From the NCBI RefSeq assembly GCF_054482525.1, contig NZ_CM137006.1: a stretch of 64,000 nucleotides of DNA, one strand, 5' to 3'. Within the stretch, counting starts at the first letter, position 1. The number at the start of each line of letters is the position of its first letter. Shown in pieces: positions 12,084-63,477 of the stretch. The translations under genes and the position numbers were made by a program. The notes beneath the pieces are model-generated. The model was given only the letters and a program-made list of their open reading frames with translations. It ran no database searches and had not been told where the DNA came from.

Positions 12084-13181
12084 ATGAAAGGACGTTGGGT
12101 AAAGTACCTTCTTATGGGCACGGTTGTGGCAATGCTTGCCGCCTGCTCTTCCAAACCAACCGATCGCGGACAGCAATATAAAGACGGGAAATTTACCCAG
12201 CCTTTCTCTCTGGTGAACCAGCCAGATGCCGTTGGCGCGCCGATTAACGCCGGTGATTTTGCCGAGCAAATTAACCATATCCGTAATTCGTCACCGCGTC
12301 TGTATGGCAACCAGAGTAATGTTTATAACGCGGTGCAAGAGTGGCTGCGCGCAGGCGGTGATACCCGCAATATGCGCCAGTTCGGCATTGATGCCTGGCA
12401 GATGGAAGGTGCCGACAACTATGGTAACGTGCAGTTTACAGGCTATTACACGCCGGTAATTCAGGCGCGCCATACCCGCCAGGGCGAGTTCCAGTATCCT
12501 ATTTACCGTATGCCGCCAAAACGTGGTCGTCTGCCGTCTCGTGCGGAGATCTACGCGGGGGCATTGAGCGATAAATACATCCTCGCTTACAGCAACTCCC
12601 TGATGGATAACTTCATTATGGATGTGCAGGGTAGCGGGTATATTGACTTTGGTGATGGCAGTCCGCTTAACTTTTTCAGCTATGCAGGGAAAAACGGTCA
12701 TGCATATCGCAGCATTGGTAAGGTGCTGATCGACCGTGGCGAAGTGAAAAAAGAAGATATGTCGATGCAGGCGATTCGTCACTGGGGCGAAACACACAGT
12801 GAAGCCGAGGTTCGCGAGCTGCTGGAACAGAACCCGTCTTTCGTCTTCTTTAAACCGCAATCTTTTGCACCGGTGAAAGGGGCAAGTGCGGTGCCGCTGG
12901 TTGGCCGTGCTTCTGTTGCCTCCGATCGTTCAATTATTCCGCCAGGTACTACCTTGCTGGCAGAAGTGCCGCTGCTGGATAATAACGGCAAATTTAACGG
13001 TCAGTACGAATTGCGTCTGATGGTGGCGCTGGATGTCGGTGGCGCAATCAAAGGCCAACACTTCGATATCTATCAAGGGATCGGGCCGGAAGCCGGGCAC
13101 CGCGCAGGTTGGTACAACCACTATGGACGTGTCTGGGTGCTGAAAACGGCTCCGGGCGCAGGTAACGTCTTTAGCGGCTGA
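12084..13181 (+). CDS. mltA: Membrane-bound lytic murein transglycosylase A (lipoprotein)
   Basis: 365 aa from ATG at 12084; lipobox LAACSS; ORF track extension upstream overlaps the tRNA genes and is spurious. Confidence 0.92.
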   Translation: MKGRWVKYLLMGTVVAMLAACSSKPTDRGQQYKDGKFTQPFSLVNQPDAVGAPINAGDFAEQINHIRNSSPRLYGNQSNVYNAVQEWLRAGGDTRNMRQFGIDAWQMEGADNYGNVQFTGYYTPVIQARHTRQGEFQYPIYRMPPKRGRLPSRAEIYAGALSDKYILAYSNSLMDNFIMDVQGSGYIDFGDGSPLNFFSYAGKNGHAYRSIGKVLIDRGEVKKEDMSMQAIRHWGETHSEAEVRELLEQNPSFVFFKPQSFAPVKGASAVPLVGRASVASDRSIIPPGTTLLAEVPLLDNNGKFNGQYELRLMVALDVGGAIKGQHFDIYQGIGPEAGHRAGWYNHYGRVWVLKTAPGAGNVFSG

Positions 13182-16197: not shown

Positions 16198-16403
16198 AAA
16201 AAAAAGCACCGCAATTAGGCGGTGCTACATTAATCACTATGGACAGACAGGGTAAATGTACAGGAAGTGAAAAAAGGTAGCTTTGCTACCATGGTCTGAA
16301 TCGCAGACCAATTGCAAACACAACAACACAACATCACAACCGTAAGCCAAAAGTTCACCAGAACACGCATTCCGATAAAACTTTTCGTTCCGGCTCAGGA
16401 AGT
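16198..16403 (-). ncRNA. gcvB: GcvB small regulatory RNA (Hfq-dependent, represses amino-acid/peptide transporters)
   Basis: 206-nt sequence recognised (5' ACTTCCTGAGCCGGAACGAAAAGTTTTATCGG... 3' GCACCGCCTAATTGCGGTGCTTTTTTTT on minus strand); G/U-rich target-binding regions; intrinsic terminator; divergent from gcvA. Confidence 0.9.
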
Positions 16404-16531
16404 GCCGCCACTATAGGTATTTGCTGGTAGAAGCTCAACGGACAATTTATAATGGCTCAGATTAAAAAAACTAATAGGTTACACAGTGTGATCTAATTGT
16501 TAAATTCATTTAACATCAAAGTTTAAAAGCC

Positions 16532-54104: not shown

Positions 54105-54255
54105 GAGTTCCCCGCGCGAGCGGGGATAAACCGAAAACCACGACCTGGCGATCGGCGTGCTGGATGAGTTTCCCGCGCGAGCGGGGATAAACCGGATAGG
54201 TGTTACACATATGACCAGGCACTGGCGAGTTCCCCGCGTCAGCGGGGATAACCAT
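54105..54255 (+). CRISPR. Minimal type I-E CRISPR array: 3 repeats (last degenerate), 2 spacers of 32 bp
   Basis: Repeats GAGTTCCCCGCGCGAGCGGGGATAAACCG (54105-54133), GAGTTTCCCGCGCGAGCGGGGATAAACCG (54166-54194), degenerate GAGTTCCCCGCGTCAGCGGGGATAACC.. (54227-54255); spacers 54134-54165 and 54195-54226. Confidence 0.85.
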
Positions 54256-54300: not shown

Positions 54301-55779
54301 TTACGCATTCGACCAGCTCTGGATCGAATCTTCATTCCCCAGCTCACCATGCATCACTTCATACGATTTTTTCAGGATCACATCAGTGTGCTTGGTTAGG
54401 TCTTTGAAAATGCCTTTATTCATCGCGTCGTAGCGTTTGGCATTGCTCTCAACAGGCATAAAGATATCTTTCACGCGAACCATTTTGTCGACAGCCGTTG
54501 CGTAATCCGGGTATAGCCCCAGACCTACCGCCGTATTAATCGCTGCCCCCAGACTTGCACAACCATTAATGGCGTTACGGCGTGCCGGAAGGTTGAACAC
54601 GTCGGCAAAAATCTGCATAAACAGATCGCTGTTCGAACCGCCGCCAGTAATGATCACATGCTTTGCAAAGTGATTCATTTCATTACACATATTGTCGTAA
54701 TTGTTCTTCAGCGTCAGCGCCACGCTTTCCAGTATCGAACGATATATCCATGCGTAATCCATGCTGGAATCAAAGCCGATCATAATCCCGCGTTTGTACG
54801 GTTCCCACGGATTGGTCAGCCAGTCCAGCACCGTCATCAGCCCATTACAGCCAGGTGGCACACTAGAGGCTTTCTTGTTGAGTAAATCTTCCGGTGAAAG
54901 ATCCTGCGCCCTGGCATCCTGAATTAACGACTCGCCTAACATGTCGCGTAGCCAGCTCACCGTCCACATGCCTTTGCGAATACCGTAACCTTCATACAGC
55001 AAGGTTTGCGGAATAGAAGACATAATCGGCCAGTACGCTACCGGATCTTTCGGCAGTGCTTTACCGTTCATCATCAGCGCGATGTAGGTGCCAAGAGAAA
55101 TCACCGCCGTTTCATCATCCAGTAATCCGGCTCCCAGAGCTTCTACCGGTTTATCACTGGTGGTACAAACAACCGGCAGCCCTGCTGGGAAATGTGTCGC
55201 CAGCGCGGCTTGAGGAGTGATATGCCCAAGAACAGTGCCCGGCATTTGCACATCAAACAGCATATGACGGGGGATATTAAACTTCTCCATGACTGCGGCA
55301 TCTTCACTCCATGCCCAGGTCTTATAATCCACCGGCCACTGACCAAAATAGTTGGCGATATTATCTTTAAACTCGCCGGTTAAGCGATGCGTCAGATAAC
55401 CTGAAAAAGAGGTGACATAGGCCACGTCAGGATTCGTATGTTCGTAAGGGCGTGTAACGCGTGCATCCTGCCAGCTGATCAACGGTGCAGCTGGCGTGCC
55501 ATCGGCTTTCAATAACGCACGGCAGCAACGGATGGATCCCAGACCAATACCGACAATATCGTCTTTATTCCCGGCAAACTGACTCATCAAATCGTGACCG
55601 GCAAAACATAATGATGCCCATAAATCGTCGTCAGGATGTTCTGCAGTATCGGCATCTGGCGTGTGCATCGGCTGTAATAAGCCTTTGCCTTCGCAAACCA
55701 CGTTACCTTCCAGATCGTACATCACCACTTTTGTGCTCTGACTTCCGCCATCAATCCCTATGATGTATTTTTTCGACAT
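54301..55779 (-). CDS. ygcE: FGGY-family carbohydrate kinase (glycerol kinase-like)
   Basis: 492 aa; FGGY N- and C-terminal domains; 26 nt after yqcE stop. Confidence 0.88.
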   Translation of the reverse strand: MSKKYIIGIDGGSQSTKVVMYDLEGNVVCEGKGLLQPMHTPDADTAEHPDDDLWASLCFAGHDLMSQFAGNKDDIVGIGLGSIRCCRALLKADGTPAAPLISWQDARVTRPYEHTNPDVAYVTSFSGYLTHRLTGEFKDNIANYFGQWPVDYKTWAWSEDAAVMEKFNIPRHMLFDVQMPGTVLGHITPQAALATHFPAGLPVVCTTSDKPVEALGAGLLDDETAVISLGTYIALMMNGKALPKDPVAYWPIMSSIPQTLLYEGYGIRKGMWTVSWLRDMLGESLIQDARAQDLSPEDLLNKKASSVPPGCNGLMTVLDWLTNPWEPYKRGIMIGFDSSMDYAWIYRSILESVALTLKNNYDNMCNEMNHFAKHVIITGGGSNSDLFMQIFADVFNLPARRNAINGCASLGAAINTAVGLGLYPDYATAVDKMVRVKDIFMPVESNAKRYDAMNKGIFKDLTKHTDVILKKSYEVMHGELGNEDSIQSWSNA

Positions 55780-55805
55780 GATTTTTCTCCTGTAATTTTC
55801 TGGAC

Positions 55806-57083
55806 TTACTTGCTGCTAGCCATAGCAGGGGCGCTATCAGCAGTACGAATTTTTTGGAACAGCAAAAAGGTAAAGACGATCACCATGGCAAGCGCCGCCA
55901 TGCCCATCAGCCACATATTGCGGTAGGCTTCTGCTGCGGGCAGGGTGTCTTGCCAGTGGCCGATAATTGGGTAAACGAAGACATCCGGCAGGAATCCAAT
56001 CACCGAACAAATACCTACCGTGGTGCCCATAATGTAAGACGGTGTTCTCGCTTCGCCAGGGCAGGCCCAGTACAGCCCGCGTGAGGCGTAACAGGTGAAT
56101 CCCAGAAGTAAAATCAGACCAATCCCCATCGCGACCGATTGCGGGTTAGAGTTCGTGATGAGCAGGGCAGTTAACGCCAGCAGGCCGAGTACGGAAAGGA
56201 TTTGGATCACGCGGGTAGGGGATTTCACTTTGCTGTAAGTGGTGATAATGCCGCCAAGCGGACCGCACAGTGCGCGGAAGATTTTGTTGATCACAATCCC
56301 CATGTAGCTCGCCGCCACCAGCGACATACCGTACATTTCGGTCAGATAGTTGGTGGAGTAACTCAGAATGGCGTAGATGGTGAAGACACCAAAAATCACC
56401 ATGCTGCAATACCAGGTGGTGCTGATGCGCAAAACGGCCAGGATGTCGCTAAGCTGGAATGACTGTTTTTCTTCGTTATTGGTATTGCGTAGGTTGTTGT
56501 TATCGCTAACAAAAAACCAACACAAAATGCCCAGCAGAATGTAAACCACACTGTAGATGATAATGACCGTTTTCAGGCTGGCGCTGTCATCCGGTGCAAA
56601 GCGAGAAAAGACCCACATGGTAAACACCGCCAGCGACATTACACCGACGCCGCGCAGCCCTTCCATCCAGCCCATAATTTTCCCTTGCTCGCTATGATCG
56701 CCCAGCAACGATGCGGCTTTAATCGACACCGACCACAGCATTAAAATCGTCGTTATCGCAAAGGCGACCTGAATACAGAGCATTACCCACAGCGGTGGAT
56801 ATGTTGCCATTAACAGACCCAGTAATCCGGTAATGATCATCGCGGAAGTAATCATTTTGCGGTGTGAAAATTTATCGGCAATAACGCCGCTGGGGGCATA
56901 AAGAATAATAGCCGCAATACCAAAGGTACTCATTATTAAACCTATCTCGGTATTGCTGAATCCCATAAATTTTGCCATGGGAATTTGATAAATATAACGT
57001 AAATAAGCCAGGTCGAAACTAACGCCGCCGCTAAAACTAATTATCGCGAGGGTTATCCAACGGCGATATGAGTTGTGTTGCAT
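55806..57083 (-). CDS. yqcE: MFS transporter
   Basis: 425 aa; 12 TM; first gene of yqcE-ygcE. Confidence 0.88.
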   Translation of the reverse strand: MQHNSYRRWITLAIISFSGGVSFDLAYLRYIYQIPMAKFMGFSNTEIGLIMSTFGIAAIILYAPSGVIADKFSHRKMITSAMIITGLLGLLMATYPPLWVMLCIQVAFAITTILMLWSVSIKAASLLGDHSEQGKIMGWMEGLRGVGVMSLAVFTMWVFSRFAPDDSASLKTVIIIYSVVYILLGILCWFFVSDNNNLRNTNNEEKQSFQLSDILAVLRISTTWYCSMVIFGVFTIYAILSYSTNYLTEMYGMSLVAASYMGIVINKIFRALCGPLGGIITTYSKVKSPTRVIQILSVLGLLALTALLITNSNPQSVAMGIGLILLLGFTCYASRGLYWACPGEARTPSYIMGTTVGICSVIGFLPDVFVYPIIGHWQDTLPAAEAYRNMWLMGMAALAMVIVFTFLLFQKIRTADSAPAMASSK

Positions 57084-57107
57084 ATCGTATTCCCATTTGT
57101 AATAGAC

Positions 57108-57155
57108 AAAAAAAAGAGAAAAGTAAGCCGCCCTTTCAGGTGGATTACTTTTCTC
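57108..57155 (-). terminator. Leader intrinsic terminator about 25 nt upstream of yqcE start (putative attenuator)
   Basis: On minus strand GAGAAAAGTAA-18 nt loop-TTACTTTTCTC (perfect 11 bp) followed by T8 run. Confidence 0.6.
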
Positions 57156-57204
57156 AGGTCTCTAGTAATTGCAATAAGAAATAACATGGAAAGCAGAGGT
57201 GTTG

Positions 57205-57220
57205 TGTGAGAGTAATCACG
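57205..57220. promoter_or_regulatory. CRP-like site, yqcE-proximal
   Basis: TGTGAgagtaaTCACg. Confidence 0.5.
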
Positions 57221-57261
57221 CTTCTGCTTTTTAAAATTATTTGACAATTCGAATATCACAC

Positions 57262-57277
57262 TGTGATTACGATCACA
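57262..57277. promoter_or_regulatory. CRP consensus site, ygcW-proximal
   Basis: TGTGAttacgaTCACA: both half-sites perfect with 6-bp spacer. Confidence 0.6.
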
Positions 57278-57331
57278 TTAGCGATTATGCCCTTATGATA
57301 AAAATTATCTCCAGTTACCAGAGATAATGAG

Positions 57332-57377
57332 AAAGGTAACTTCCCTCTCGCGGGGGAAGTTACCTTTCTTTTTTTTT
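57332..57377 (+). terminator. Leader intrinsic terminator about 25 nt upstream of ygcW start (putative attenuator)
   Basis: AAAGGTAACTTCCC-tctcgcgg-GGGAAGTTACCTTT (perfect 14 bp) followed by CTTTTTTTTT; upstream AGTTACC (57313-57319) can pair with GGTAACT (57335-57341) as an alternative antiterminator. Confidence 0.6.
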
Positions 57378-57401
57378 GCCTTACGGAAATTGGAGCTAAC
57401 T

Positions 57402-58187
57402 ATGTCAATCGAATCTCTCAATGCGTTCTCAATGGATTTTTTCTCCCTGAAAGGTAAAACCGCAATTGTTACCGGCGGGAATAGCGGTTTAGGCCAGGCA
57501 TTTGCCATGGCGCTGGCCAAAGCAGGCGCAAATATCTTTATTCCAAGCTTCGTTAAAGATAACGGCGAAACAAAGGGAATGATTGAAAAACAGGGTGTTG
57601 AAGTTGATTTTATGCAGGTGGATATCACCGCAAAAGGCGCGCCGCAGAAGATAATCGCCGCCTGTTGCGAACGTTTCGGTACCGTCGATATTCTGGTTAA
57701 CAATGCCGGTATTTGTAAGCTGAATAAGGTGCTGGACTTCGGTCGTGCCGACTGGGATCCAATGATTGATGTGAACCTGACCGCCGCATTCGAGTTAAGC
57801 TATGAAGCTGCAAAAATTATGATCCCGCAGAAAAGCGGTAAAATCATTAATATCTGTTCATTGTTCTCTTACTTAGGTGGACAATGGTCACCTGCTTATT
57901 CTGCCACTAAACATGCTCTTGCCGTATTCACCAAAGCCTATTGCGATGAATTAGGTCAATATAATATTCAGGTGAATGGTATTGCTCCGGGATATTACGC
58001 TACCGATATCACTCTGGCGACCCGTAGTAATCCAGAAACTAACCAGCGCGTTCTTGATCATATTCCGGCAAACCGTTGGGGCGATACTCAGGATTTAATG
58101 GGCGCAGCCGTATTCCTCGCAAGTCCGGCATCGAATTATGTCAACGGACATTTATTAGTGGTTGATGGCGGTTATTTAGTGCGCTAA
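57402..58187 (+). CDS. ygcW: Short-chain dehydrogenase/reductase (SDR)
   Basis: 261 aa from ATG at 57402; TGGNSGLG Rossmann motif and YxxxK catalytic pair; ORF track extension upstream spans the leader terminator and is spurious. Confidence 0.88.
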   Translation: MSIESLNAFSMDFFSLKGKTAIVTGGNSGLGQAFAMALAKAGANIFIPSFVKDNGETKGMIEKQGVEVDFMQVDITAKGAPQKIIAACCERFGTVDILVNNAGICKLNKVLDFGRADWDPMIDVNLTAAFELSYEAAKIMIPQKSGKIINICSLFSYLGGQWSPAYSATKHALAVFTKAYCDELGQYNIQVNGIAPGYYATDITLATRSNPETNQRVLDHIPANRWGDTQDLMGAAVFLASPASNYVNGHLLVVDGGYLVR

Positions 58188-62901: not shown

Positions 62902-63477
62902 TCAAAGCAATTTTTTCGCTAGCGTCCAGACCCCGGTATTTGTGGTGGAAAGCGCCACGACACCTGCGTTAATCGCATTACGCGCATCTTCTTCATCGCA
63001 CACCAGCCCGCCGGCAATCAGCGGTTGGCGGATTTTCTCCGTCACCCAGCCCAGCACTTTAGGCATACAGCCTGGCAGGATCTCAATACAATCCGGATTC
63101 GATTGCGCAACTTGCTTATCAATGTTGTGAAACGAAATCGAATCAACAATAAACAGGCGATGAATACAGAAAAAACCTTCCGCTCTTGCCGCTTTCAACA
63201 TTGAGGCTTTGGTACTGATAATGCCGTCCGCCTCAGTCACCAGTTTCAAAAACTGAATCACCACTTCTTTATTTGACGCGCCTTCCAGCAAATCAACATG
63301 AATAAAAGCATATTTTCCGGCATTTTTAATCTTTTTAACGATTTGACTAATGGTGCAGATATTGCCGTACAACACGGAAATAAACTGGCATTCAGAGTCG
63401 ATTGCCAGTTGCAGGCTGGCATTATCTTTAACGGCAGCAATCACCGGATTCTGGCGGAGCAGGTGTAAGAGGGGCAT
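62902..63477 (-). CDS. ygcP: GlpP-family (glycerol-3-phosphate-responsive-type) transcription antiterminator
   Basis: 191 aa; shares GlpP signature blocks (DLLEG, DGIISTK, DCIEILPG, IAGGL, GVVALSTT) with B. subtilis GlpP as recalled. Confidence 0.85.
   Translation of the reverse strand: MPLLHLLRQNPVIAAVKDNASLQLAIDSECQFISVLYGNICTISQIVKKIKNAGKYAFIHVDLLEGASNKEVVIQFLKLVTEADGIISTKASMLKAARAEGFFCIHRLFIVDSISFHNIDKQVAQSNPDCIEILPGCMPKVLGWVTEKIRQPLIAGGLVCDEEDARNAINAGVVALSTTNTGVWTLAKKLL

Follow-up and report, generated by a model that had tools for sequence, protein, structure and literature searches.

Here we analysed the 318-bp intergenic region (57084-57401) that separates the divergent yqcE-ygcE and ygcW-ygcU-ygcS-ygcR-ygcQ operons in a 64,000-nt stretch of Escherichia coli DNA, referred to below as the window. 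Transcription of both operons terminates prematurely by default, within the leader, and each nascent leader can alternatively form a small conserved hairpin that overlaps the 5' arm of the terminator. We propose that both operons are probably driven by CRP-dependent initiation together with antitermination by YgcP, a GlpP-family protein encoded 5.5 kb from the leaders. This mode of control is well known in Bacillus and undescribed for E. coli. The mirror symmetry that the original prediction, made from the sequence alone, had seen in the region is explained by its being two inverted copies of one complete module. The features are listed below. Transcription start sites (TSSs) are approximate, being taken from RNA-seq boundaries; antiterminator energies refer to the minimum free energy (MFE) structure of the nascent RNA; and R1 is a covariance model built from 64 distinct enterobacterial leaders only.

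54301-57083, minus strand: operon yqcE-ygcE, encoding a major facilitator superfamily (MFS) transporter and an FGGY kinase; controlled operon
57083, minus strand: ATG of yqcE, left border of the intergenic region
57108-57155, minus strand: intrinsic terminator of yqcE, stem 57155-57116 and U8 57115-57108; folding, Term-seq score 11.4, not Rho-dependent
57108-57171, minus strand: yqcE leader RNA, ecr2775; R1 match 57109-57171, 69.1 bits, E 6e-12; Northern blot
57144-57169, minus strand: predicted yqcE antiterminator, AUUACU 57169-57164 with AGUAAU 57149-57144, loop AGAGACCUGAGAAA; -1.4 kcal/mol
57178-57186, minus strand: extended -10 element of yqcE, TG-t-TATTTC, hexamer TATTTC 57183-57178; TSS about 57171, the 5' end of ecr2775
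57205-57220, unstranded: CRP site of the yqcE promoter, TGTGAGAGTAATCACG, predicted from sequence; centre 57212.5, which is -41.5 for TSS 57171
57262-57277, unstranded: CRP site of the ygcW promoter, TGTGATTACGATCACA; centre 57269.5, which is -41.5 for TSS 57311; chromatin immunoprecipitation (ChIP), Footprint-seq and PhyloScan
57296-57304, plus strand: extended -10 element of ygcW, TG-a-TAAAAA, hexamer TAAAAA 57299-57304; TSS about 57311
57311-57378, plus strand: ygcW leader RNA, ecr2774; R1 match 57312-57377, 80.5 bits, E 2e-14; Table S5 of PMC4681348
57313-57341, plus strand: predicted ygcW antiterminator, AGUUACC 57313-57319 with GGUAACU 57335-57341; -6.1 kcal/mol
57320-57334, plus strand: loop of the ygcW antiterminator, AGAGAUAAUGAGAAA, conserved; proposed YgcP site
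57329-57378, plus strand: intrinsic terminator of ygcW; folding, terminator scan, covariation, Term-seq score 15.8, not Rho-dependent
57402, plus strand: ATG of ygcW, right border of the intergenic region; annotated YgcW is 261 aa
57402-62755, plus strand: operon ygcW-ygcU-ygcS-ygcR-ygcQ, encoding a short-chain dehydrogenase/reductase (SDR), a flavin adenine dinucleotide (FAD)-linked oxidase, an MFS transporter and electron-transfer flavoprotein (ETF) beta and alpha subunits; controlled operon
62902-63477, minus strand: ygcP, PF04309 (GlpP-family); proposed trans-acting antiterminator

Premature termination and the promoters

Published data place RNA 3' ends within both leaders. In Term-seq of cells grown in lysogeny broth (LB) to an optical density (OD) of 0.4 (Adams 2021; PMC7815308), one 3' end lies at -38 of ygcW with 40,640 reads and another at -36 of yqcE with 1,557 reads. 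Neither end is in a Rho-dependent region, and their intrinsic-terminator scores are 15.8 and 11.4, respectively, where a score of at least 3 denotes intrinsic termination (PMC7815308). No regulatory element is annotated at either position in that study. Romero 2014 (PMC4681348) catalogued two short RNAs from the same region, the 73-nt ecr2774 on the ygcW strand and the 63-nt ecr2775 on the yqcE strand, and classed both as "simple, single extended stem-loop, perhaps REP-like" small RNAs (sRNAs). The latter is visible on a Northern blot (PMC4681348, Fig. 7), and its abundance varies with the medium. Their U00096.2 coordinates are not exactly mappable onto the window, and we used only spacings that are independent of the offset. 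The 5' ends of ecr2774 and ecr2775 are 139 nt apart, compared with 140 nt between the predicted TSSs, and their 3' ends are 275 nt apart, compared with 270 nt between the ends of the U tracts. We conclude that ecr2774 and ecr2775 are the two terminated leader RNAs, each running from TSS to U tract. The catalogue entry describes the same RNAs, but with no cis-regulatory reading, antiterminator or link to YgcP. A lack of premature termination was among the outcomes that the original prediction had named as refuting it, and the published data show the opposite, with Term-seq ends in both leaders.

The hairpins responsible are strong, and the two leaders are alike in sequence as well as in shape. 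A strong terminator in each leader had been predicted, and both are present near the expected positions, although the ygcW stem is longer than the 14 bp first assigned to it: it is a perfect 19-bp stem (57329-57370) closed by a loop of 4 nt, and the T run behind it (U9) occupies 57370-57378. On the minus strand, the yqcE hairpin consists of an 11-bp outer stem plus an inner stem. The two U tracts stop 23 and 24 nt ahead of the ATGs of the operons. RNA folding, which had been suggested as a check, bears this out: the folding energy is -42.4 kcal/mol for the 102-nt ygcW leader (z = -6.8; none of 200 shuffles did as well) and -27.3 kcal/mol for the yqcE leader (z = -4.2 against shuffles). With a simple scan of 56800-57700, 8 terminator-like sites were observed versus 0.9 expected. 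Among relatives, all 92 unique leaders have hairpins of -20 to -36 kcal/mol. The terminator helix is paired in 95.8% of cells, as against 61-70% in slid registers, and compensatory changes occur in 7 of its 16 pairs, most of them in the variable inner stem. A bidirectional terminator was considered and rejected; no U tract follows the hairpins on their reverse strands, and the reverse-strand matches of the model are weak palindrome echoes.

Each leader has its own CRP-dependent promoter. CRP-type sites had been predicted at 57205-57220 and 57262-57277, and both are present. They do not form a tandem pair, as had been supposed; instead, each is the class II site of its own promoter. The ygcW-proximal site, TGTGATTACGATCACA, is bound by CRP in ChIP from enterotoxigenic E. 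coli (ETEC; PMC4287617) and in vitro by Footprint-seq, with an estimated dissociation constant (Kd) of 1.7 nM (PMC12871828), and PhyloScan had also predicted it. CRP would bind the yqcE-proximal site, TGTGAGAGTAATCACG, in the same way, and yqcE-ygcE is listed as Crp-activated (PMC8085971). In 100 of 100 leaders, the centre of a CRP-like site (2 mismatches or fewer) precedes the first GUUAC base by 42.5-45.5 nt, and in the window the two distances are 43.5 and 44.5 nt. A TGnTA extended -10 element is conserved between the CRP site and the motif in the leaders examined. Each leader RNA starts 2-3 nt ahead of the upstream antiterminator strand.

The intergenic region of the window is 100% identical to that of E. 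coli N3 and 98.1% identical to that of K-12. The six differences from K-12 are all outside the leader motifs and the CRP cores. Three are noted at 57298, 57172 and 57178: two of them lie between the yqcE motif and its predicted -10 element, and one adjoins the -10 element of ygcW, which reads TGaTAAAAA in the window and TGcTAAAAA in K-12.

A conserved hairpin, the predicted antiterminator

The start of each leader RNA is complementary to the 5' arm of its terminator. In the ygcW leader, the previously proposed complementarity of AGTTACC (57313-57319) to GGTAACT (57335-57341) is present and covaries across the 64 distinct leaders. The yqcE leader contains an equivalent pair that was overlooked at that stage. 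The resulting GUUACY/RGUAAC helix is paired in 98.7% of cells, compared with 17-62% when the register is slid. Compensatory double changes are found in three of its six pairs, GC<->AU (11 cells), UA<->CG (13) and AU<->GC (1), and G·U wobbles occupy 15 of 384 cells. The comparison across relatives, also suggested as a check, therefore finds compensatory changes in the terminator and the antiterminator helices alike. The enclosed loop, N-GAGA-N3-4-GAGAAA, is nearly invariant, as would be expected for a protein-recognition site rather than a passive spacer. In more distant genomes, the helix is replaced by other self-complementary sequences: GUUGCU/AGCGAC in Listeria, GUUUC/GAAAC in Faecalibacterium and GGUC/GACC in the Bacillus subtilis glpD leader. 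Of 17 diverse leaders, 15 have the antiterminator hairpin as the MFE structure of their nascent RNA, and the full leader favours the terminator by 14-18 kcal/mol. As computed, these energetics are the signature of a default-off switch that would need a trans-acting stabiliser.

The distribution of the motif was determined from loci gathered with a YgcP search, one genome per species. This gave 65 loci, from Escherichia to Serratia, Pantoea and Erwinia, and including Listeria, Thalassobacillus, a Bacillus and three Clostridia-class genomes. Homologues of ygcW, ygcU, yqcE and ygcE accompany ygcP in nearly all of them. The RNA motif reads GUUACY-N-GAGA-N3-4-GAGAAARGUAAC-(variable stem)-terminator-U8, and the corresponding DNA pattern is (C)AGTTACY-N-GAGA-N3-4-GAGAAARGTAAC-(variable GC stem-loop)-GYTTRCYTTTCTC-T8. 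A regular expression matches exactly twice in each of 49 loci and in the window, always once before ygcW and once before yqcE, and both leaders are kept in every Enterobacterales locus that holds the divergent region. With R1 at E <= 1e-7, the 1.22 Mb of related loci yield 99 matches, two in each of 49 Enterobacterales loci plus one in Thalassobacillus, and none elsewhere. Within the 64-kb window, R1 returns the known two copies and no others, including upstream of ygcN and ygcS. Of 5426 complete E. coli genomes, 5063 carry the leader, with a median of two places per genome, and 5115 carry ygcP. In 4870 of the 5063, identity over the 68-nt ygcW leader reaches 99% or more, a higher conservation than that of the ygcP coding sequence.

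The motif is absent from Rfam. Searched at a permissive E-value, the region of the window gave no family at threshold (the best match reached 26 of the 90 bits required), and gathering thresholds applied to the Firmicute loci left only tRNAs. The sub-threshold matches (rliE, SurA and miRNAs) were at chance level and were rejected.

Two variants of the intergenic region were seen among the Enterobacterales. Citrobacter youngae (locus L010, about 16320-16470) and Klebsiella spallanzanii (L012, about 12665-12816) carry a repeat resembling the enterobacterial repetitive intergenic consensus (ERIC; ...CGAATCCCGATGAGCTTACTGTAGTAAGTGATTCGGGTGAGTGAACGCAGCCAACGC...) between the yqcE terminator and the start codon, and the leader motif is intact despite this insertion. 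In Limnobaculum eriocheiris (L032, 13890-13947), the ygcW-yqcE spacer is only about 130 bp and contains one palindromic hairpin between A9 and T9. This hairpin matches the terminator part of the model (model positions 13-66) on both strands, and both antiterminator strands and the promoters are missing. From its sequence, the spacer looks like a deletion that fused the two leaders.

YgcP as the candidate antiterminator

The original prediction had assigned ygcP to the GlpP family, and this holds. YgcP is a full-length match to the PF04309 (G3P_antiterm) family of Pfam (E 1.6e-62), and its solved homologues, PDB 3kts (E 8.5e-28) and 1vkf (E 8e-15), are annotated as glycerol-uptake antiterminators. 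The best 120 YgcP homologues are all ygc-type proteins at least 54% identical to it, and its identity to Bacillus GlpP-type proteins is about 33%. The motif adjoins PF04309 genes in five phylum- or class-level lineages, and the two occur together in every lineage examined. In Listeria, it lies directly 3' of a TTGACT-17-TATACT promoter, ahead of ygcU-ygcP-yqcE-ygcW-ygcE, and a Bacillus locus has two copies near its PF04309 gene. R1 finds the motif ahead of SDR, FAD-oxidase or FGGY genes in Vibrio hannami, Clostridium sediminicola, Sporomusa and Fodinisporobacter (E 6e-13 to 2e-5). It is also beside the PF04309 gene in Enterococcus gilvus and in Streptomyces clavuligerus, where the element scores 60 bits and has 44% GC in a high-GC genome. 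Two Clostridia-class genomes have weaker matches (E 0.003-0.006) between glpP and glycerol-3-phosphate-dehydrogenase-like genes, a setting canonical for glycerol genes.

The YgcP-YgcW-YgcU-YgcE module itself is common to Gammaproteobacteria, Bacilli, Clostridia, Negativicutes and Streptomyces (loci L056-L059 and L063 in Listeria; L060, L061, L067-L070, L072 and L073). YgcW is 76-78% identical between E. coli and Listeria. Such unusually high identity across lineages suggests that the pathway and its RNA switch were horizontally transferred as a whole. In Enterococcus gilvus (L072, 8556-8630), a second, degenerate motif copy (GAGGAGAGAGAAAAGCGGACACC...GGTGTCCGCTTTTTT) stands right after the stop codon of the glpP-like gene and before the SDR gene. 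Its upstream complementary strand is indistinct, and it may act on read-through from the regulator gene.

The closest known system is GlpP of B. subtilis, which mediates glycerol-3-phosphate-dependent antitermination at the leader terminators of glpD, glpFK and glpTQ (Holmberg & Rutberg 1992; Glatz et al. 1996, 1998; as summarised in PMC9604022 and PMC10573289). Joined to foreign promoters, the glpD 5' untranslated region (UTR) by itself brings expression under the control of GlpP and glycerol, and deletion of glpP abolishes induction (PMC9604022). The glpD leader, whose sequence we took from a published supplement, reads ...CGGUCCU-GAGA-UGAG-GAGA-GACCACAGC...GGUCUC-U5. By eye and by folding, its layout is like that of the ygc leaders: GGUC pairs with GACC at the base of the terminator 5' arm, around two GAGA elements, and this hairpin is the MFE structure of the nascent RNA. 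Both systems have a PF04309 regulator and an intrinsic terminator in the 5' UTR. In both, a kinase of the regulon plausibly makes the phosphorylated inducer (GlpK in B. subtilis, YgcE in ygc), and catabolite control is laid on top, by CcpA in B. subtilis glp and by CRP in ygc. The ygc system differs in its regulon of SDR, FAD-oxidase, ETF, FGGY and MFS genes, in its divergent pair of targets and in its Gram-negative host, and its inducer, unlike that of B. subtilis GlpP, is probably not glycerol-3-phosphate. We infer from the family membership of YgcP, the placement of the motif beside PF04309 genes and the design of the glpD leader that YgcP is the likely RNA-binding factor.

The same regulatory logic is found in the BglG/SacY/LicT group, which acts on the E. 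coli bgl operon and the B. subtilis sac and lic operons. There, an RNA-binding protein under the control of a ligand or signal stabilises a weak 5' hairpin (the ribonucleic antiterminator, RAT) that shares sequence with the 5' arm of a strong leader terminator. For antitermination in a catabolic operon of E. coli, BglG is the textbook case. Proteins of this type have CAT and PRD domains and are regulated by phosphorylation through the phosphotransferase system (PTS). YgcP, in contrast, has a single PF04309 domain of unrelated fold, and the RNA sequence and structure differ as well. Pfam finds no CAT or PRD domain in YgcP, and the annotated genes of the cluster include no CAT or PRD protein. 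The GAGA repeats are also reminiscent of the short purine-rich triplets or loops (UAG or GAG repeats) in leaders to which the Bacillus proteins HutP, TRAP and PyrR bind when loaded with a small molecule, and through which they choose between terminator and antiterminator. However, these belong to other families, TRAP and PyrR promote termination, and the ygc leaders have only two GAGA repeats, placed in a hairpin loop.

In the mechanism that we propose, the region would act as two back-to-back copies of a module made up of a class II CRP promoter with an extended -10 element, a leader RNA and an intrinsic terminator. CRP-cAMP would activate both promoters. By default, the nascent leader would fold into the terminator, and RNA polymerase would halt about 23 nt before the start codon and free an RNA of 60-70 nt. 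The first 30 nt or so could alternatively form the weak hairpin, in which GUUACY pairs with RGUAAC of the terminator 5' arm. Inducer-loaded YgcP is predicted to bind the GAGA...GAGA loop and clamp the hairpin, blocking the base of the terminator. The YgcE kinase probably supplies this inducer as its phosphorylated product. Once the hairpin is locked, only the inner GC stem could form, about 11 unpaired nt from the U tract. By established terminator geometry, termination should fail at this distance, and read-through would follow.

A broader reading also seems possible, and we put it forward tentatively. The GAGA-N3-4-GAGA hairpin could be a general PF04309 recognition element, with YgcP a second, widely transferred branch of the family. 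This branch would sense the phosphorylated product of the YgcE kinase, rather than glycerol-3-phosphate, and gate a cryptic polyol or sugar pathway (SDR, FAD-oxidase and ETF) common to E. coli, Vibrio, Listeria, Clostridia and Streptomyces.

Several observations weigh against antitermination by YgcP. The loci were gathered with a YgcP search, so the co-occurrence of motif and PF04309 genes is partly built in. R1 is not significant on the canonical Bacillus thuringiensis glpP-ugp leader, in which the eye can pick out GGGU-A-GAGA-ACAUUU-GAGAAC-ACCC. The compensatory changes within the Enterobacterales reduce to only about three events; the helix variants in other phyla, aligned by the model or by eye, add further changes. 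The antiterminators are also very weak, at -6.1 and -1.4 kcal/mol versus -34 and -21 kcal/mol for the terminators, and a protein would need to hold the hairpin kinetically. Lastly, the Term-seq ends (57364 and 57119) fall short of the U tracts and lie within the A/U-rich base of the stems, by 6 and 3 nt. The boundaries that Romero 2014 drew from RNA-seq, in contrast, reach the U tracts, and the Term-seq positions may reflect exonucleolytic 3' trimming.

The best surviving alternative, which we regard as unlikely, is that the leaders are constitutive attenuators, or that ecr2774 and ecr2775 are genes for trans-acting sRNAs, with no regulated antitermination in either case. The short RNAs are abundant in LB and one is seen on a Northern blot, a hairpin with a U8-9 tail is typical of the 3' ends of Hfq-binding sRNAs, and regulated read-through is unreported. 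Such a reading nevertheless leaves unexplained why a covarying upstream strand competes for the terminator 5' arm, nor does it account for the occurrence of one module, in distant phyla, ahead of different genes of a shared pathway. Moreover, a terminator without a bypass, 23 nt before the first start codon, would silence conserved operons. A secondary role in trans for the abundant terminated leader RNAs may exist.

It is distinctly unlikely that the leaders are riboswitches, with the 5' hairpin binding the metabolite itself and YgcP acting as an enzyme or an unrelated regulator. The mutually exclusive antiterminator and terminator would suit a riboswitch, as would the extreme sequence conservation from E. 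coli to Streptomyces, and PF04309 proteins have a TIM-barrel-like fold with weak similarity to flavin mononucleotide (FMN)-dehydrogenases. However, the conserved element is only a 6-bp helix with a loop of about 15 nt, and it lacks the second helix or pseudoknot from which a pocket could be built. It is always beside a PF04309 gene, no Rfam family matches it, and the equivalent B. subtilis glpD leader requires GlpP genetically (PMC9604022).

A DNA operator is very improbable. In this explanation, GTTAC...GTAAC would be bound by a dimeric repressor just past the TSS and the hairpins would be incidental; the inverted repeats span +3 to +31, a favourable position for a repressor roadblock. Yet the 15 of 384 cells with T opposite G would be mismatches in a DNA palindrome, the half-sites differ between the two leaders of one genome with each remaining self-complementary, and the asymmetric GAGA...GAGAAA spacer and its strand orientation relative to the gene are conserved. 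Together, these features argue for pairing in RNA. In addition, no DNA-binding regulator is conserved in the cluster.

Attenuation by a leader peptide from ATG 57327, in frame with ygcW, can hardly be right: an open reading frame (ORF) call does extend ygcW to this ATG inside the hairpin (286 aa, 57327-58187), but no yqcE leader has the ATG, many ygcW leaders lack it too (CCTGAGAAA, GAAGAGAAA, CAGGAGAAA), no Shine-Dalgarno sequence precedes it, and the annotated 261-aa YgcW begins at 57402. We rejected the 286-aa ORF as a mechanical artefact, since its start ATG is not conserved.

If antitermination by YgcP is correct, it would be a second class of protein-mediated catabolic antitermination in E. 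coli besides BglG. It would recast two catalogued sRNAs as attenuated leaders and give the orphan regulator YgcP concrete candidate RNA targets. The RNA target of the PF04309 family is not known to have been defined at the level of a motif, and a compact cross-phylum motif outside Rfam would be a tool for mapping GlpP-family regulons. As the switch would report its inducer, leader-reporter fusions would provide a direct screen for the substrate of the ygc cluster, which more than 93% of complete E. coli genomes carry. In Bacillus, GlpP and its terminators already serve as portable tools for gene expression, and it would be useful to have an orthogonal pair that responds to another ligand.

Gene content and neighbouring features

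The window is from E. coli, and the K-12 annotation agrees on gene order and identities: pyrG-eno-ygcG-queE-ygcE-yqcE, then ygcW-ygcU-ygcS-ygcR-ygcQ, then ygcP-ygcO-ygcN. The ygc products include a KduD-like SDR, a GlcD-like FAD oxidase with ETF subunits, an FGGY kinase and MFS transporters. None of glpFK, glpD and glpT is among the genes controlled by the two leaders, which places these operons outside the glp regulon. This weakens the idea that the leaders belong to the glp system itself, but not the idea that they work like those of GlpP. In E. coli, the glp genes are governed by the GlpR repressor.

We found no description in the literature of YgcP targets, of the ygc leader RNA motif or of the substrate of the ygc cluster. 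This agrees with the original prediction, which had called antitermination of the cluster undescribed in E. coli; the literature gives neither a mechanism nor a substrate. Two apparent leads were set aside: "YgcW" in a PdhR paper is apparently a misprint of YbcW, and the Weinberg 2017 motif paper is unrelated to the ygc leader motif.

A minimal type I-E CRISPR (clustered regularly interspaced short palindromic repeats) array lies between queE and ygcE (54107-54254, minus strand). It contains three repeats, with 1-3 mismatches to GGTTTATCCCCGCTGGCGCGGGGAAC, and two spacers. K-12 (L001, 5185-5578) has a longer annotated CRISPR array at the same queE/ygcE position.

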